Below, piece by piece: positions 1,486 to 7,714 of a stretch of 55,058 nucleotides of DNA. Position numbers and translations under genes: made by a program. Source of the stretch: Erysipelotrichaceae bacterium (lineage in GTDB: Bacteria > Bacillota_I > Bacilli_A > Erysipelotrichales > Erysipelotrichaceae). A model generated the notes under the pieces. That model saw nothing but the letters and a program-made list of their open reading frames with translations, did no database searches and had not been told where the DNA came from. The stretch covers positions 1-55,058 of the forward strand of contig JAFZDT010000139.1 of the NCBI GenBank assembly GCA_017561055.1, read 5' to 3'. Every line of letters starts with the position of its first letter. Positions within the stretch are counted from its first letter, which is position 1.

Positions 1486-2601
1486 ATGATTATTGGATGT
1501 ACAAAAGAATTAAAGAACCACGAATATCGTGTTGGTTTAATCCCGGATAATGTATATACATTTGTTAAAGAAGGACATAGTGTATATGTTGAAACAAATG
1601 CTGGTGTTGGTGCTGGTTTTACAGATGAAATGTATAAAGAAGCGGGAGCTATTATTTTAGATACTGCTAAAGAAGTATATGATATTGCGGATATGATTAT
1701 TAAGGTTAAAGAACCAATTGAATGTGAATATGATTTATTAAGAGAAAATCAAATTTTATATACATATTTACATTTAGCACCAAACGCTCCATTGACGAAA
1801 GTATTAATGGAAAAAGGTGTGAAAGCAGTAGCATATGAAACAATTACTGATAAAGAAGGAAATCTTCCATGCCTTCGTCCAATGAGCCAAATTGCTGGGC
1901 GTTTAAGTGTGCAACAAGGTGCTAAATATTTGGAAAAGAGTTTTGGTGGAAGAGGAATTCTTTTAGGTGGAGTTCCAGGTGTTGAAAGAGGTAAGATTGT
2001 AATTATTGGTGGAGGAGTTGCAGGTACCTATGCAGCAAAAGCGGCTGTTGGTATTGATGCTCAAGTAACATTATTAGATATTGATTTAAATCGTTTATCA
2101 TATTTAGAAGATGTTTTTGGAGCAAGTGTAACTACTTTATATTCAACGGAAGCGAACATTCGTAAATGTCTTGCGGAAGCGGATTTAGTAATTGGATCTG
2201 TATTGATTCCTGGAGGGAAAGCTCCAAAATTGATTCGTAGAGAACATTTGTCTATTATGAAAAAAGGTGCAGTTATTGTAGATATTGCGATTGACCAAGG
2301 TGGTTGTTGTGAAACAAGTGAAGTAACAACACATCAAGAACCAGTATATATTGTGGATGATGTTGTTCATTATTGTGTAGGGAATATGCCTGGTGCAGTA
2401 CCTTATACTTCTACATTAGCATTAAATAATGCGACATTTAAGTATGCACGTATGATGGCTAATTATGGATTTGAAAAAGCAATTAAAAAGGATGCTGGTT
2501 TGGCAGATGGTGTAAATATTTATGCACACAAATGTGTAAATCAAAATGTAGCAGAATCATTGAATTTGGAATATACAGAACTTGATACAGTATTAGCTTA
2601 G
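1486..2601 (+). CDS. ald: Alanine dehydrogenase
   Basis: The N-terminus MIIGCTKELKNHEYRVGLIP is typical of AlaDH. The Rossmann motif VIIGGGVAGTYAAKAA is present. SD AGAGGTG at 1473-1479 precedes ATG 1486, so the track start 1414 is probably too early. Confidence 0.93.
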   Translation: MIIGCTKELKNHEYRVGLIPDNVYTFVKEGHSVYVETNAGVGAGFTDEMYKEAGAIILDTAKEVYDIADMIIKVKEPIECEYDLLRENQILYTYLHLAPNAPLTKVLMEKGVKAVAYETITDKEGNLPCLRPMSQIAGRLSVQQGAKYLEKSFGGRGILLGGVPGVERGKIVIIGGGVAGTYAAKAAVGIDAQVTLLDIDLNRLSYLEDVFGASVTTLYSTEANIRKCLAEADLVIGSVLIPGGKAPKLIRREHLSIMKKGAVIVDIAIDQGGCCETSEVTTHQEPVYIVDDVVHYCVGNMPGAVPYTSTLALNNATFKYARMMANYGFEKAIKKDAGLADGVNIYAHKCVNQNVAESLNLEYTELDTVLA

Positions 2602-2624
2602 AGCATGAAATTCATGCTCTTTTA
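2601..2624 (+). terminator. Intrinsic terminator after ald
   Basis: GAGCATGAA (2601-2609) pairs with TTCATGCTC (2611-2619), followed by TTTT. Confidence 0.75.
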
Positions 2625-2644
2625 TATTGGTGGATAAGTAATAG

Positions 2645-2706
2645 AAAAAAATTAAAAAAATTTTAAAAAAGTTGTTGACAATATATTTTTATGGTGATAA
2701 TATAAT
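2645..2706 (+). promoter_or_regulatory. Strong sigma-A-type promoter driving the purine-rich RNA locus
   Basis: An A/T-only UP-like tract spans 2645-2670. The -35 is TTGACA at 2675-2680. A 17-nt spacer leads to the extended -10 TGaTAATAT at 2695-2703. An overlapping perfect TATAAT at 2701-2706 would have a 20-nt spacer. The predicted TSS lies in the GGG at 2708-2710. Confidence 0.75.
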
Positions 2707-2771
2707 AGGGCTGCTTCGGGAAGAATGTTCCTAGGTGGCTAAGAGTTATCGAATAGTCGGTATTTCCTAAA

Positions 2772-4298
2772 GCTGAGTAACTAGATCCTAAGGCGCAAGC
2801 TAAGGAGATGAGGTTGTAATTCGTAAGAATGAAGGCTTCGATGCTATGGTAGCTACTGTGAAGCGAGATGGCGTACGGTGAAAGGAATTGCAGTAGGCTG
2901 AGTACCAGAATCGGATGAAAAGCATGGCAACAGGCTGGACGGAAGATGAAGATATGCACCGTGTTAACCGCTACTTGGGGAAACGGGAAGAAGGGAAAAG
3001 AAAGGTAGAAAGCTGAGTAGTCAGAAGCGTACTGAAATGGACGAAAGAAAGTCGAAGGTAAGCTGAAAGGCCGAAAGCGTAAGCATGAGGCAAGCACCTG
3101 TGGAACAGCTGTGGGAGTGAAACAGGGAAGGATGAAAGGAAACAAACAGAATGCCAAGTACTAGAAGCCGGAAGGTTCGCATGGGAAACTAGGTGAATGA
3201 TACGGTGGAAATCGATGAGTCTGAAAGGATGAATCGTAGCACTGGAAATGCCACTGTGAGGCAAGACTAGGAAGAAGGGAACGGAAGAAACAGAATGCTG
3301 AGTAGTTAGAACCTAAAACTGAAGCGGACGAAAGAATGTGGAAGAGGAAGGGGAAAGGCCGAAAGCGCAAGCATAAGGCAAGCACCTGTGGAACGGCTGT
3401 GGGAGTGAAACGGGGAAGGCTGAATGGAAACAAACAGGAAGCTGAGTTCAAGAACCTGGAAGTAAGGCATAAGAGATTAGGCTTGAGAGAAGGGGGAAAT
3501 CGTGAAGGCGAGAGCTAAAACGAGCACTGGTTCAACCACTATGAGGTGAAGCTGGGTAGAGTGGAAAGGAAGAAATAGAGACTGAGTAGTGAGATGCTAA
3601 AGCGGATGTGGACGAAAGGAAGCGGAAGTCATGTGTCTGCCCTAACAAGAAATTGGAATGGGATCGCCTGTGGAACGGCTGCGGGAGCGAAGCAGGGAAG
3701 AACGAAAGGAAACCATCAGTAGTGCCAAGTACAAGAACTAGGATGGAATACATGAGAAATCAGGTAGGAAAGAATGGGGAAGCGTAAGAAGTGAAAACGG
3801 AGGACGTGCACTGAAGTAGCCGCTGTGAGGCGACATCAGGAAGAACTGGAAAGGAAGAAGCAGAAAGCTGAGTAGCTGGAAGTTGAACAGAAGCGGACGA
3901 AAGAATGTGGATGGGAAATGGAAAATATGGAAAGTGAAAACTGGAAGTAAGCACTTGAGGAACGGCTGTGGGAGTGAATCAAGGTAGGGTGAAAGGAAAC
4001 ATACAGTGATGCTGAGTACCGGAAACCAAGAAGGTATGCATGAGAAATCAGGCAGAAGGGAATGGGGAAAACGCAAGAAGCGAAAGCGGAAGGCGAGCAC
4101 TGAAGAAGCCACTGTGAGGCGATATCAGGAAGAAAAGGGAAAAGAAGAAACAGAGGCTGAGTAGTCAGAATCCAAAACTGAAGTGGACGAAAGAAAACTA
4201 AAACAGCGGAGGTCAGAAAGTTGAAAGGAAACGATGTATGTCGTGGAATGGAAGGCCTAGAGAAGTTGGATACGAAAGTTGATAACAAGGGTGAGTCG
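2772..4298 (+). repeat. Tandem array of 11-12 diverged modules (period about 140-145 nt; 285-nt super-repeat of two alternating subtypes)
   Basis: The anchor GCUGAGUA(G/C) or GCCAAGUAC occurs at 2772, 2897, 3012, 3153, 3297, 3441, 3581, 3724, 3867, 4011 and 4156, with a degenerate GGUGAGUCG at 4290. Spacings are 125, 115, 141, 144, 144, 140, 143, 143, 144 and 145 nt. Confidence 0.85.
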
Positions 4299-4365
4299 GA
4301 AGAAGCAGCTGCAGAGATTGAATCCGATGGAAGATGAAAGGAAATTGCAGACGAAGAACAATATG

Positions 4366-4396
4366 AGTCTCAACTGAAAAGTTGAGGCTTTTTTTG
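4366..4396 (+). terminator. Intrinsic terminator of the purine-rich RNA
   Basis: AGUCUCAAC (4366-4374) pairs with GUUGAGGCU (4381-4389). That gives 9 bp including one G-U, a 6-nt loop, then U7. Confidence 0.85.
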
Positions 4397-4493
4397 TGTT
4401 ATAAAGAAGTGTATAGATAAAGACAATATAGTTAGAAAAGTGCTAAAATAAAATTGTAATAACAAATCATGTATTTTAGAAAGGGAATGACAT

Positions 4494-5846
4494 ATGGGTA
4501 GTAATAAAAGTATTAGTATCTTAAGAGATGCGCCTGTTGGAAAGGCTTTGTGGTATTTATCGTTGCCAGCTGTGCTTACAACACTGGTTGGTACAATACA
4601 CAATTTAATTGATGGTATATATGTTAGTTCTCTTAATGATAATGCAATGATTGCGGCAACAACAGTAGCTTTACCGGTAATTGTTGTTTCTGAGGCGATT
4701 GGTGAAGGAATTGGTGTTGGTACTGCTAGTTATTTAGGTAGACTTTTGGGGGCTAAAGATGAAAGTAAGGTTGAACGATTAATTGCGACTTCTATAACTT
4801 TAATGTTTTTAGTTTCAATCATTTTGTTAGTGGCGACAATTGTGTTTTTAAGACCGGTTATATCTTTCTTTACTACCGATCCAATGGTTATTAAGCATTC
4901 ATATGATTATCTTTTAATCTTAATGTGCTCTTCTATTTTTACAATTTCAAAACAAGTAGTTTCTAATATGCTTCGTGCTGCTGGTGATGTGAATTATCCA
5001 ATGAAGATTATTATTGCTAGTATTGTAGTTAATATTGTTTTAAATCCAATATTTATGTTTGATTTTGGTTTTGGATTAAAGATTAGAGGTGCGGCTATTG
5101 CGACAGTTTTAGCTGAAGTATTTGCGTCTTTTGCGATGTTTTATCGTCTTATTTTTAGAGATGATGTAATTAAATGGAGATTAGGTCATTTTGTACTTTG
5201 TATAAATTCCATAAAAGAAATTATTAATGTAGGTATACCAGTATTCATTAGAAATGGATTATCATCAATATCTTATGGTCTATTTGCGAAATCATCTGGT
5301 ATGTTTGGTACAGATTTCTTAGCTGCGAGTGGATTGTCTAGAAAAGGTGAATATTTTTCTCGTTTTGTAATTATGGGAGTTGCGCAAGGATATCAATCAT
5401 TTGCGGCTTATAACTATGGTGCTAAAAATAAACAACGTCTTATGGATGGCTTGAAGATGGCATTGAAGTTTACAATTGGGTATGGCTTCTTGATGGGAGG
5501 GTTCTTCCTATTCTTCCCACATGTTTTCATGCGTATATTAACAAGTGATGCGAATTTGATTGCGCTTGGTAAAAATATGTTAATTGGATATGCGATTTCT
5601 GTTCCGTTTGTTGCGATTTATCAAATTTTAGCTTACAATTTCCAAGCATTAGGAAAAGGTAAATTATCGTTTATTACTTCAGTATTAAGACAAGGAATTG
5701 TATACTGTCCTTTAGTAACTATATTACCTCGTTTATTTGGTATGACAGGAATGATTATTGTACAACCAATTTGTGATTTATGTAGTGCTTTGGTTGTCTT
5801 GTTCTTATCTAGATCTATCATTAAAGAAATACAAGCAATGGAATAA
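4494..5846 (+). CDS. MATE family efflux transporter
   Basis: 450 aa with a 12-TM-like hydrophobic profile. The N-terminus (PVGKALWYLSLPAVLTTLVGTIHNLIDGIYV) is typical of the MatE family. Confidence 0.85.
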   Translation: MGSNKSISILRDAPVGKALWYLSLPAVLTTLVGTIHNLIDGIYVSSLNDNAMIAATTVALPVIVVSEAIGEGIGVGTASYLGRLLGAKDESKVERLIATSITLMFLVSIILLVATIVFLRPVISFFTTDPMVIKHSYDYLLILMCSSIFTISKQVVSNMLRAAGDVNYPMKIIIASIVVNIVLNPIFMFDFGFGLKIRGAAIATVLAEVFASFAMFYRLIFRDDVIKWRLGHFVLCINSIKEIINVGIPVFIRNGLSSISYGLFAKSSGMFGTDFLAASGLSRKGEYFSRFVIMGVAQGYQSFAAYNYGAKNKQRLMDGLKMALKFTIGYGFLMGGFFLFFPHVFMRILTSDANLIALGKNMLIGYAISVPFVAIYQILAYNFQALGKGKLSFITSVLRQGIVYCPLVTILPRLFGMTGMIIVQPICDLCSALVVLFLSRSIIKEIQAME

Positions 5847-5884
5847 GCATTTCAATAGCATCTTATCTAAGTTATTCATATAAT

Positions 5885-6724
5885 ATGAATATGGAAAAGA
5901 TAGATGTAAGAAGAAATGAAAGTTTAAAAAAATATACAACATTGCATATAGGTGGTAATTGTAAGAATATTTATTTCCCTGGAAATGAAGAGGAAGTAAA
6001 GAAAATTTTAAAGGTAAATCCTATTATATTAGGTTGTGGAAGTAATGTTCTAATTGATGATACTAGAGAATTTGAATGTGCTATGGTATTAACAAAGTTT
6101 AATCAAATTAGATTAGAAGGAAATACCATCATTGCGGATGCAGGAGCTAAATTAATGGATGTATGTCTATTTGCGCTCGAACATGGTTTGACAGGGTTGT
6201 AATTTGCGTATGGAATACCAGGAAGTGTTGGTGGAGCTATTGTAATGAATGCTGGTGCATATGGTGGCGAAATTAAGGATGTAATTGTTGGTGTGAAAAC
6301 GGATAAACAGTATTATGAAAATGAGGAATGTGATTTTGGATATCGAAATTCAAAATTCTCAAATTCAAAGGAATGTATATTAAAGGGATATTTTCAATTA
6401 CAAAAGGGTGATAAATCAATCATACAAATGAAAATGGATGATTTATTACAAAAAAGAATGGATAAGCAACCATTAGATAAATACAGTGCAGGATCGACTT
6501 TTAAAAGAGGAACTGATTTTTATGCTAGTCAATTGATTAGTGATTGCGAGTTAAAAGGATATCGAGTAAATGATGCGAGTGTATCGACTAAGCATGCAGG
6601 ATTTTTGATTAATGATGGTAATGCATCCTATACGGAATTTATGCAATTAATAGAAGATGTGCAACGTATTGTATATGATAAAACAAATAAAAAATTAGAA
6701 TGTGAAGTGAAGATAATAAAATGA
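5885..6724 (+). pseudogene. murB: UDP-N-acetylmuramate dehydrogenase interrupted by a single in-frame TAA (6200-6202)
   Basis: ORFs 5885..6202 and 6245..6724 are in the same frame. Reading through gives [30 protein letters not shown]. The MurB consensus here is GL(S/T)GLEF..[16 protein letters not shown], so the stop replaces the conserved Glu (GAA to TAA). Confidence 0.8.
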
Positions 6725-6742: not shown

Positions 6743-7714
6743 TCATTTGTTGTTATAGAAATTCCAAGCAGTTTGAATTATTTCATGAATATTTGTATAT
6801 TTTGGATTCCAGCCTAAGATTTCTTGGGCTTTTTTGTTACAAGCAACTAATTTAGCAGGATCTCCTGCACGGCGATCACAATAGATAGTTTTAATTGGTT
6901 GTTGTGTAACTTCTTCAGCAGCTTTAATAATTTCTAGTACGGAATAGCCTTCTCCATTACCAAGATTGATTATATTTGATGCATGTCCATCCATTAGATG
7001 GTGAATGGCTTTGATATGAGCATCAGCTAAGTCACATACATGAATATAATCTCGAATGCATGTTCCATCTTTGGTTGGATAGTCTGTACCAAATACACTA
7101 ATAGCATCACGTTGTTTTAAAGGAACTTGTAAAACTAAGGGAATAAGGTGTGTTTCTGGATTGTGTAATTCTCCAATTAATCCATTTGGATGTGCGCCAC
7201 AAGCATTAAAGTAACGAAGCGCTATATAATGCATGTCATAAGCTTCTTCACACCATTTCATCATTTTTTCCATAGCAAGTTTAGTTTCGCCATAAGGGTT
7301 TGTAGGTATGGTATCAAAATCTTCTAGTATTGGTACTTCTTTTGGTTCTCCATAAGTAGCTGCAGTAGATGAAAATACAATATACTTAACATTATGATTT
7401 TTCATAGTTTCTAATAAAACCATCATTCCATATACATTGTTATGATAATAGTCTAACGGCTCTTTCATACTTACACCAACTAAAGAATTAGCCGCAAAAT
7501 GAATAACTCCTTCAATATTTTCTTTTTCAAAAACACCATTTAAGAAAACAGAATCACGTAAATCACCTTTATAGAATTTTGCTTTTGGATGAATTAATGA
7601 TTCAAATCCCGTTTGTAGATTATCGACAATAACTACATCATGATTTTGGTCGATTAATTCATATACAGTATGACTTCCAATATATCCAGCACCACCTAAT
7701 ACTAAAATGCTCAT
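6743..7714 (-). CDS. galE: UDP-glucose 4-epimerase
   Basis: The N-terminus MSILVLGGAGYIGSHT is typical. An SDR-extended YGETK catalytic motif is present. Length is 323 aa. Confidence 0.93.
   Translation of the reverse strand: MSILVLGGAGYIGSHTVYELIDQNHDVVIVDNLQTGFESLIHPKAKFYKGDLRDSVFLNGVFEKENIEGVIHFAANSLVGVSMKEPLDYYHNNVYGMMVLLETMKNHNVKYIVFSSTAATYGEPKEVPILEDFDTIPTNPYGETKLAMEKMMKWCEEAYDMHYIALRYFNACGAHPNGLIGELHNPETHLIPLVLQVPLKQRDAISVFGTDYPTKDGTCIRDYIHVCDLADAHIKAIHHLMDGHASNIINLGNGEGYSVLEIIKAAEEVTQQPIKTIYCDRRAGDPAKLVACNKKAQEILGWNPKYTNIHEIIQTAWNFYNNK

Follow-up and report, generated by a model that had tools for sequence, protein, structure and literature searches.

ROOL, GOLLD and OLE (RF03087, RF01998 and RF01071) are large free-standing non-coding RNAs (ncRNAs) of Firmicutes that have covarying helices, invariant loops and unknown functions. 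They are accessory and patchy in distribution, and ROOL is found in the rumen or gut. ROOL and GOLLD are often present in prophages. An RNA gene that shares many of these properties is predicted at ~2710–4400 (+ strand) in contig JAFZDT010000139.1 of an Erysipelotrichaceae bacterium (assembly GCA_017561055.1). The whole stretch analyzed, 55,058 nt, is referred to as the window. The gene appears to be free-standing and to encode a purine-rich structured ncRNA of ~1.65 kb, largely composed of a tandem array of two alternating types of folded modules. Like the three known RNAs, it has an abundance of GNRA loops, A-rich strands and loop-E-type motifs; in ROOL and GOLLD these mediate higher-order assembly (PMC12286853, PMC12990946). 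However, there is no sequence or structure match between the new RNA and the other three. The new RNA is two- to threefold longer (1.36–1.94 kb compared with about 0.6–0.8 kb), and it alone consists of tandem homologous modules in two alternating types. In contrast to the prophage habit of ROOL and GOLLD, it is not found in phage, viral or plasmid collections.

Other known RNAs also carry repeated units. The sponges CsrB and RsmX/Y/Z (for CsrA) and CrcZ (for Hfq/Crc) have a repeated binding determinant, act in trans and are strongly expressed, as is predicted here, and purine-rich GGA-containing strands comparable to theirs (GAAAGGAA) are present in every module of the new RNA. These sponges are 100–400 nt with hairpins of ~10–20 nt that have GGA in the loop, whereas the repeat in the new RNA is a 143-nt four-way junction in which the hairpin loops are GNRA, GYGGG or RCUGUGA and GGA is in internal loops and junction strands. 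To our knowledge, no sponge of the CsrB/Crc type is known in Firmicutes. NORAD and other eukaryotic long non-coding RNAs have diverged copies of a unit of a few hundred nt that multiply partner sites, but the NORAD units are set by short linear protein-binding motifs and not by a covarying multi-helix fold, and there is no homology. The type III antitoxins ToxI and CptI and CRISPR arrays are tandem direct repeats with one promoter and a single precursor; ToxI and CRISPR transcripts are processed to monomers. In ToxI loci, repeats of about 36 nt precede the toxin gene, and CRISPR repeats are 24–48 nt with unrelated spacers and adjacent cas genes. A ToxI-like antitoxin was rejected for the present locus, where the period is 143 or 285 nt and the downstream genes of homologous loci are unrelated (MATE, FemAB, DUF3854, esterase, sugar transferase, dUTPase and others). 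A CRISPR array was also rejected: the entire 285-nt period is homologous, and there are no short exact repeats, no spacers and no conserved associated gene.

No match was found at the gathering score when the whole window was compared with the 4227 models of Rfam 15, which include ROOL, GOLLD, OLE, raiA, HEARO, riboswitches, self-cleaving ribozymes, 5S rRNA, tRNA, 6S and CsrB/Rsm. At E ≤ 10, positions 2500–4600 give only chance matches of 12–22 bits, far under the thresholds, and the RNA of 12 homologous loci has no Rfam match. The modules thus show no match to a known small RNA or riboswitch family, which would have spoken against the original prediction. No tRNA or tmRNA is present in the window as determined by ARAGORN, and the Rfam tRNA model matches only true tRNAs in one homologous locus (L068). 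The searched full-text literature on large bacterial RNAs contains no description of such an RNA, and no precedent in it for a tandem heteromeric-module design in a bacterial structured RNA; its coverage is incomplete, and an earlier description is possible. The RNA therefore appears to represent a previously uncatalogued family of herbivore-gut Firmicutes. It has the size, absence of coding potential, covarying helices, invariant unpaired nt and predicted promoter and terminator of an "ornate" large structured ncRNA, and would rank behind ribosomal RNA as one of the largest structured RNAs of bacteria. Only a small number of large structured ncRNAs have been described in bacteria, among them RNase P, tmRNA, OLE, GOLLD and ROOL, and each gave rise to a field of its own; at its predicted length, the new RNA exceeds all the non-ribosomal ones.

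The tandem array and its predicted gene

The array is in a 1.9-kb gap between ald, which encodes alanine dehydrogenase and ends at 2601, and a MATE transporter gene (4494–5846). The true start of ald gives a product of about 371 aa, and its terminator, at 2600–2620, is upstream of the RNA promoter. No credible open reading frame (ORF) was found in the gap. The base composition of this intergenic stretch is A 37, G 33, C 13 and T 16% (71% purine), and the GC content of the RNA region is 47% compared with 31% in the rest of the window.

The original prediction described 11–12 modules, each with a short anchor sequence, and all twelve of its anchor positions are present. The anchor, GCYRAGUA, is at 2772, 2897, 3012, 3153, 3297, 3441, 3581, 3724, 3867, 4011 and 4156, and a degenerate form, GGTGAGTCG, is at 4290. 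The spacings are 125, 115, 141, 144, 144, 140, 143, 143, 144, 145 and 134 nt; the predicted 140–145 nt is borne out for anchors 3012–4156, the last interval (4156 to 4290) being the one of 134 nt, and the super-periods of 285, 284, 286 and 289 nt are exact. On both strands of the 55-kb window there are 11 copies of GCYRAGTA compared with 3.3 ± 1.9 expected, a number reached by 0 of 100 shuffled sequences, and 9 of the 11 fall within the 1.4-kb array, all on the + strand.

An alignment of the twelve pieces reveals two homologous module types that alternate, as had been proposed for odd and even modules. The same division is seen in gapless repeat families at spacings of 282–289 nt, in nhmmer profiles and in a type I covariance model (R1). 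R1 gives 134–157 bits on the four canonical type I modules and 25–29 bits on type II cores, and elsewhere in the 55 kb it finds nothing at E < 0.1 besides array modules. Since R1 also scores the degenerate modules m1 and m11 and the type II profile finds m2, the I-like/II-like alternation spans m1 to m11. By homology the count of 11–12 modules is correct, but only the eight at 3012–4155 are canonical, three (m1, m2 and m11) are degenerate, and 4290–4352 is a distinct 3' domain. The 3' end sequences assigned to the two types are also correct. Of the conserved blocks that were listed, GGCCGAAAGCG(Y)AAGC is confined to two window modules. Module-to-module identity within the array is 66–80%; this low identity explains why Tandem Repeats Finder yields no repeat in the region.

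The predicted gene has the following features, in window positions:

2640–2672, + strand: A/T-rich A-tract region, presumably UP-element-like; AAAAAAGTTGTTGACA conserved in 13 aligned loci, of which 12 include the promoter
2675–2680, + strand: -35 hexamer TTGACA from a promoter scan, identical in 12 of 12 loci with the 5' end
2695–2703, + strand: extended -10 element TGA TAATAT after a 17-nt spacer, conserved as TGnTAwwAT; predicted transcription start about 2708–2712
2710–2771, + strand: 5' leader before the first anchor, partly conserved among loci
2772–2896, + strand: m1 of the conserved 5' domain, type I-like but degenerate (R1 36.5 bits, E = 5e-7), kept in all loci with the 5' end
2897–3011, + strand: m2, also in the 5' domain, type II-like but degenerate (nhmmer type II 33.7 bits, E = 2e-8), conserved
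3012–3152, + strand: type I module 1 (R1 156.9 bits), with covariation; AGUA 3016–3019 facing GAA 3134–3136; P1 3020–3022/3131–3133; arm A tip C-GAAA-G 3042–3047; arm B 3070–3091; arm C 3097–3126
3153–3296, + strand: type II module 1 (nhmmer 97.9 bits); AGUA 3157–3160 facing GAA 3279–3281; P1 3161–3162/3277–3278
3297–3440, + strand: type I module 2 (R1 142.9 bits)
3441–3580, + strand: type II module 2, anchor variant AGUU (nhmmer 103 bits)
3581–3723, + strand: type I module 3, subtype GUGAGAUGCUAAAGCG (R1 134.2 bits), with orthologs in L009, L099, L128, L132, L134 and L136
3724–3866, + strand: type II module 3 (nhmmer 114.2 bits)
3867–4010, + strand: type I module 4 (R1 146.9 bits)
4011–4155, + strand: type II module 4 (nhmmer 110.2 bits), with 87% identity to the corresponding modules of L005, L128 and L140
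4156–4289, + strand: m11, truncated or remodeled type I module that opens the conserved 3' domain (R1 49.6 bits, E = 5e-10), highly conserved in 17 loci
4290–4352, + strand: 3' terminal domain (GGUGAGUCGG...GAAAUUGCAGACGAA) with a covarying helix, UCGG/CCGA here and CCGG/CCGG or CCAG/CUGG in homologs
4365–4400, + strand: intrinsic terminator, an 11-bp stem followed by a U-tract, with an equivalent hairpin and T-run in homologs

Similarity among homologous loci begins at the A-tract region, and the promoter, AAAAAAGTTGTTGACA-N17-TGnTAwwAT, is kept almost to the base in the 12 loci that include the 5' end. The hairpin of the terminator has compensatory changes in the homologs. Similarity to locus L005 stops at about 4352. 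G-U pairs are frequent at covarying positions (GC 25 and GU 14 at one pair, UA 22 and UG 20 at a second), which indicates that the + strand is the RNA strand. A strong independent transcript from ~2710 to ~4400 is predicted. As judged by eye only, a hairpin in m1, CCUAAG-GCGCAAGC-UAAGG (2786–2808), resembles the 11-nt GAAA-tetraloop receptor (CCUAAG/UAUGG); the L009 sequence is CCUAAAG...CCAUGG.

Module fold and covariation

Secondary structure was modeled from MAFFT alignments made without structural input, of 39 di-modules (A3), 71 type I modules (A4) and 74 type II modules (A5). RNAalifold predicts 35 pairs on A3, 24 of which have compensatory double changes, and mutual-information analysis adds further long-range pairs. 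Type I and type II modules independently give the same layout. The module is best modeled as a four-way junction that is closed by a stem of 2–3 bp (P1) and has three arms, two of them with GNRA-capped tips. These domains are ~125 nt with purine-rich linkers of ~15–20 nt between them.

Positions in the fold refer to the first window module of each type. P1 is formed by nt 9–11, directly after the anchor, which pair with the three nt just 5' of an invariant GAA; at type I position 10 and its partner (A4 columns 10 and 169) there are 35 UA and 33 CG pairs. Arm A of type I consists of P2 (16–17 with 51–52; GC 28, CG 22, GU 12), P3 and an invariant tip, GGA-C[GAAA]G-AAA. In type II, one P2 pair is GC 25, UA 24, CG 15 and AU 7, and the tip hairpin (AU 51, GC 22) has a GAAA or GAGA loop. 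Arm B has a helix (CG 33, AU 25, GC 9), an internal loop and GC-GNRA-GC. Arm C of type I displays CCUGU/ACAGG (innermost pair AU 26, UA 22, UG 20) around GGAAC and the invariant GCUGYGGGAG, and arm C of type II displays CUGR/YCAG (CG 37, UA 28) around CC[RCUGUGA]GG.

The curated type I structure has 95.0% of cells paired compared with 27–37% in slid controls, and double changes at 15 of 19 pairs. None of 500 shuffles reaches the percentage paired or the covariation score, and one of 500 reaches the count of double-change pairs. The curated type II structure is 95.8% paired compared with 14–41% in slid controls, and all 18 of its pairs have double changes (0 of 500 shuffles), so that 33 of the 37 pairs in the two structures are supported in this way. 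When only metagenome rows are scored, which were not part of the A3 alignment where most helices were first seen, 95–96% are paired compared with 14–41% in slid controls, and there are double changes at 12 of 19 and 16 of 18 pairs. The eight canonical window modules all conform to the curated folds. Single-sequence folding energies are marginal relative to shuffles (z = -2.1 and -0.9), as expected for helices of only 2–5 bp.

Loops and junction strands are invariant and helices covary. The pattern of conserved blocks and diverged linkers in the original prediction is therefore present, but the "linkers" are largely helices with compensatory changes and the "blocks" are loops and junction strands. 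The anchor is one strand of the closing motif and not a module boundary as such. Its positions 5–8, AGUA, are opposite the invariant GAA and next to P1, and both elements are invariant or at least 90% conserved in the 71 type I and 74 type II modules. At position 4, the purine beside AGUA varies together with the base that follows GAA, in non-canonical combinations (G with A; A with C or A). From this sequence signature, we infer that AGUA/GAA is probably a G-bulged motif of the sarcin-ricin/loop-E type. The sarcin-ricin/loop-E of rRNAs has the same 5'-AGUA-3' and 5'-GAA-3' strands beside a Watson-Crick helix. It is a building block and not a family, and here it recurs 10–12 times in one RNA.

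Several other pairings and motifs were considered and rejected. RNAalifold pairs the anchor with the next anchor (columns 1–7 with 343–349), but this is an artifact of the GCU.AGU quasi-palindrome, with no covariation and with C-A mismatches in GCCA variants. Pairing of the anchor CUG with a conserved downstream CAG is not supported in that type II anchors vary (GCCA, GCCG, GCUA) while CAG is invariant. By eye, arm C does not fit a k-turn. A hammerhead reading of CUGAGUA...CGAAAG would place U where G8 is required, and the CUGA box is lost in the anchor variants CCAAGUA and CCGAGUA. No Watson-Crick covariation was found between modules. The invariant loops of arm C, e.g., 3108–3118 in type I and 3250–3262 in type II, contain the Shine-Dalgarno (SD)-like sequences GGGAG and GAGG, seen by eye, which may be due to chance in a purine-rich RNA or may offer a site for the anti-SD of the 30S subunit.

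Homologous loci, layout and evolution

A search with the motif GGAACRGCTGYGGGAGYGA matched at least 119 genome contigs, from which true homologs were sorted by BLAST. Among the matches listed, at least 22 loci in at least 18 metagenome-assembled genomes (MAGs; GTDB species genomes) were confirmed, with 70–83% identity over 400–1900 nt. A second search, with a gapped pattern of 21 invariant positions that fits all 54 type I modules then known, gave 14 matches in metagenome contigs; 13 are true and one (L141) is a chance match inside a coding region. Overall identities are 70–88%. The same alternating array is thus found in at least ~35 independent loci (at least 22 genome loci and 13 metagenome contigs), the genome distribution being a lower bound. 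Gut MAGs from goat, sheep, water buffalo, roe deer, water deer and reindeer make up all the true hosts; they carry the labels Erysipelotrichaceae, Oscillospiraceae, Oscillibacter and Lachnospiraceae. The flanks range from 29% to 57% GC across loci and the RNA from 45 to 58%. The LysS protein of the window has 86% identity to that of an Erysipelotrichia MAG and 85% to that of Breznakia, which places the host in the Erysipelotrichia.

All loci share one plan. Two degenerate modules, 125 and about 115 nt long, lie in a conserved 5' domain; this is followed by n di-modules (type I + type II), a 3' part and a terminator. The 3' part begins with a truncated type I module, after which comes a unique conserved domain ending in ...GAAAUUGCAGACGAA. 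The number of pairs differs between loci; RNA lengths are measured from the predicted start to the end of the conserved tail:

n = 3 pairs: L034, 1367 nt; L022, 1362 nt; L053, a contig without promoter and tail motif and hence with no length
n = 4 pairs: the window, 1642 nt
n = 5 pairs: L009, 1928 nt; L102, 1944 nt; L099, cut at the 5' end and hence with no length

The increments between classes are approximately one 285-nt di-module, and the unit of gain and loss is the I + II pair. The scan for solitary and arrayed copies proposed with the original prediction, made with module profiles, found arrayed copies at the homologous loci and no solitary module in 980 kb of fetched DNA, about 95 unrelated control loci among it. 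The proposed comparison of module number between species gives 3, 4 or 5 di-modules, always with strict block conservation.

There are variations on this plan. An extra conserved element of ~90 nt (..UUCGUUAAGC..GUGUGUGGAGGCCGAAAGGCUGAAACCACC..UUAAUGA) is between the 3' domain and the terminator in L034, L022, L118, L121, L128, L132, L140 and others, and is absent from the window, L009, L102, L099 and L042. The L068 copy has an extra m2-like degenerate module in mid-array (6263–6390), and one of its type II modules has 25 additional nt inserted in arm B. L032 (1–540) and L090 (2630–3166) are the two ends of contig JAZREI010000009.1, and the 5' part of the RNA is repeated at both, pointing outward; this contig is palindromic with mirrored flanking ORFs, an assembly artifact or inverted duplication.

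Window modules have 0.78–0.87 identity to a module in another species compared with 0.66–0.80 to the best window paralog, and module subtypes recur at equivalent positions in different species. Because modules are closer to their cross-species counterparts than to their paralogs and subtypes are positional, the duplications are old, with copies individually kept and not homogenized. Such an evolution is the opposite of that of a slippage-driven satellite. The original prediction held that selection acts on a repeated structural unit and that the array is neither a recent slippage product nor a neutral satellite, for which arbitrary copy number with no block conservation would be expected. The number does vary, but blocks are strictly kept, and the ~35 loci with the alternating array, the orthology across species and the strong covariation of helices all favor selection. 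The observation is thus real and its interpretation as a structural unit is supported, by data that are all genomic.

The position of the gene is not conserved. Close relatives of the window, L002 (ald DNA 91% identical) and L142/L143 (lysS DNA 97.6% identical), have murB directly after ald, and no RNA modules were found in the fetched DNA of these three loci. The arrangement in these relatives indicates that window positions 2624–5872, which contain the RNA gene and the MATE gene, represent an indel of 3.25 kb. Identity between the window and L142 falls from 97.6% in lysS to 90% in ald and 78% in murB, a mosaic that suggests recombination. Synteny with ald is a poor guide to orthologs: L003 and L004 have unrelated contexts, L005, alone, has a 3' fragment, and in L005 the RNA is two genes upstream of ald. 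Neighbors differ at every locus, some being on the opposite strand; they include MATE, enolase, FemAB, DUF3854, DUF624, LuxR, esterase, sugar transferase, dUTPase, M18 peptidase, Fe-ADH, VTC, MarR and CitMHS. Some MAGs hold two or three copies of the RNA. The window copy is 83% identical to a copy in an Oscillibacter MAG of 57% GC and 75% identical to copies in Erysipelotrichaceae MAGs, which suggests horizontal transfer or old paralogy. The RNA gene is accessory and appears to move between genomes.

Possible functions and neighboring sequences

Our preferred explanation, which we put at somewhat below an even chance with the gene, array and fold described above included, is that this ~1.65-kb ncRNA acts in trans as a multivalent scaffold or sponge. 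The near-consensus promoter would direct high-level transcription, and on that basis the RNA is expected to be abundant; action in trans is suggested by the variable genomic context. Invariant surfaces repeated 8–12 times per molecule would form a multivalent platform (scaffold or sponge) that holds many copies of a partner, for which a protein or perhaps the small ribosomal subunit is a candidate. Binding could involve the loop-E motif, the arm C loop, the GNRA loops and the GAAAGGAA strand, and the number of binding units could be tuned in steps of one di-module. A scaffold or sponge is preferred because units vary by whole di-modules, the modules are closed and independent, and Watson-Crick covariation between modules was not found. 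This independence would hold at the level of secondary structure. Several points weigh against the explanation. Strand, ends and abundance are predicted from sequence, and the structure was partly derived by mutual information on alignments that were also used for scoring. Every sequence is of MAG or metagenome origin, with many contigs ending within the RNA. No co-occurring protein gene was found in 8-kb locus slices. In addition, the strict alternation of two types and their type-specific invariant loops are unnecessary for a sponge with one partner and hint at docking of I with II or at two partners, and an RNA with so many GNRA loops and A-rich strands is equally compatible with RNA-RNA tertiary packing.

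Such packing is the basis of the main alternative, which we regard as possible but rather unlikely and in which modules pack in cis through GNRA loop-helix and A-minor contacts into a defined body or filament made of RNA only. The di-modules would then be covalently linked equivalents of ROOL, GOLLD or OLE protomers, much as the original prediction speculated, and the 5' and 3' domains would cap the assembly. Each di-module has four GNRA-capped hairpins, with conserved tandem C-G pairs as possible receptors, and contacts of this kind are used by ROOL and GOLLD multimers (PMC12286853). The RNA is 71–77% purine with long A-rich single strands, its very short helices and marginal z-scores suggest a need for tertiary support, and the strict alternation with type-specific invariants suggests I–II docking. 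Strict alternation and purine richness are explained better by this alternative than by a scaffold or sponge. The variable module number fits it less well, since 3, 4 or 5 di-modules in different species would not be tolerable for a closed symmetric cage and argue against a cage of fixed symmetry; the missing inter-module covariation also counts against it. A precursor that is cut in its purine-rich linkers, near the conserved ACAG upstream of anchors, to individual RNAs of ~143 or 285 nt would be consistent with closed, self-contained modules joined by a conserved single-stranded linker, and ToxI antitoxins and CRISPR arrays are precedents. We consider it improbable. No conserved nuclease gene adjoins the RNA among the loci, and no known self-cleaving ribozyme model of Rfam matches even at E ≤ 10, so that tandem arrays of known ribozymes such as hammerhead or twister, though not of a conceivable new class, were rejected. 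The unique conserved 5' and 3' domains and the single promoter and terminator suggest that the whole molecule matters, and modules that have diverged into position-specific orthologs are not interchangeable.

The remaining explanations concern the setting of the array. An RNA of a mobile or selfish element, serving in replication, as a guide or in addiction, would account for the patchiness and the spread to distant hosts, and it is in keeping with the absence of the gene from the same locus in L002 and L142/L143, the several copies in some MAGs and the closer similarity of the window copy to the Oscillibacter copy. A DUF3854 (Toprim-like) gene just downstream of the L009 copy (2090–3223, - strand) is the only mobile-element-like neighbor seen; DUF3854 is often located on conjugative or mobile elements. 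Nevertheless this explanation is very improbable in our estimate. Among the loci, genes for a recombinase, reverse transcriptase or replication protein are not regularly found next to the RNA, no direct or terminal repeats were seen at the indel junctions in the window, and there are no copies in viral contigs (IMG/VR), INPHARED phages or PLSDB plasmids, a first scan of viral contigs having given three chance singletons and a second, more specific scan zero. A setting of the ROOL/GOLLD type (prophage or phage, tRNA array) is likewise not seen: there is no viral match, and tRNAs are near the L068 copy only, where two tRNA genes (7540–7690) are ~220 nt downstream of the RNA. The RNA is directly upstream of the MATE gene and on the same strand, as a cis-regulatory leader would be. 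This is hardly tenable and is already contradicted by comparative data: downstream genes at other loci are unrelated and some are on the opposite strand. Also, the strong terminator and a separate promoter-like site (4420–4449) intervene, and 1.65 kb far exceeds any known leader. Almost no weight is given to a neutral minisatellite, an assembly artifact or a repetitive protein gene on the minus strand, although the copy number varies, many contigs end inside the element and ORFs as long as 164 aa are present on the pyrimidine-rich minus strand. A minisatellite is contradicted by covariation and invariant blocks across at least ~35 loci and by positional orthologs in other species, and an artifact by an independent metagenome contig (L001) that is 99.7% identical to the window over 4.3 kb. 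The minus-strand ORFs overlap in all three frames, are unconserved and have no Pfam match, periods of 284, 286 and 289 nt are not multiples of 3, and G-U pairs would become C-A mismatches on that strand.

In its design, two different folded domains form a pair that recurs in tandem and whose copies are old and position-specific; no bacterial structured RNA of this kind is described in the searched literature. The RNA offers a natural test of what internal repetition in an RNA is for, multivalency or self-assembly, and a well-defined target for cryo-EM, and it points to a function shared horizontally among rumen and hindgut Firmicutes. It is conceivable, if doubtful, that this is the first bacterial RNA to build a higher-order particle from concatenated protomers, either an RNA-only superstructure or a multivalent particle, that is horizontally spread. 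If so, type I and type II domains would dock into an RNA-only superstructure, a counterpart in cis of the ROOL and GOLLD cages, or alternatively the particle would capture many copies of a cellular machine, e.g., 30S subunits bound by way of the SD-like GGGAG/GAGG loops. Herbivore-gut Firmicutes would share the gene by horizontal spread, and at 1.4–1.9 kb, the size of 16S rRNA, the RNA would be the largest non-ribosomal structured RNA in bacteria. Most of this interest would be lost if the reading is wrong; the comparative evidence is strongly against an inert repeat.

Three minor observations concern sequences near the RNA or its relatives. The Oscillibacter locus L118 has a T-box leader (5591–5837, - strand; 101 bits) that is unrelated to the RNA. 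Between lysS and ald, L142 (8500–12270) and L143 (8500–12310) have a segment of ~3.7 kb that is missing in the window and contains unknown ORFs, a phage-integrase fragment and an HPr gene. The murB homolog of the window (5885–6724) has an in-frame stop, GLTGL*FAYG (about 6200–6202), where relatives have Glu; MurB is intact in L002 and L142 (277–278 aa), and the window gene could represent a pseudogene, a sequencing error or something else.

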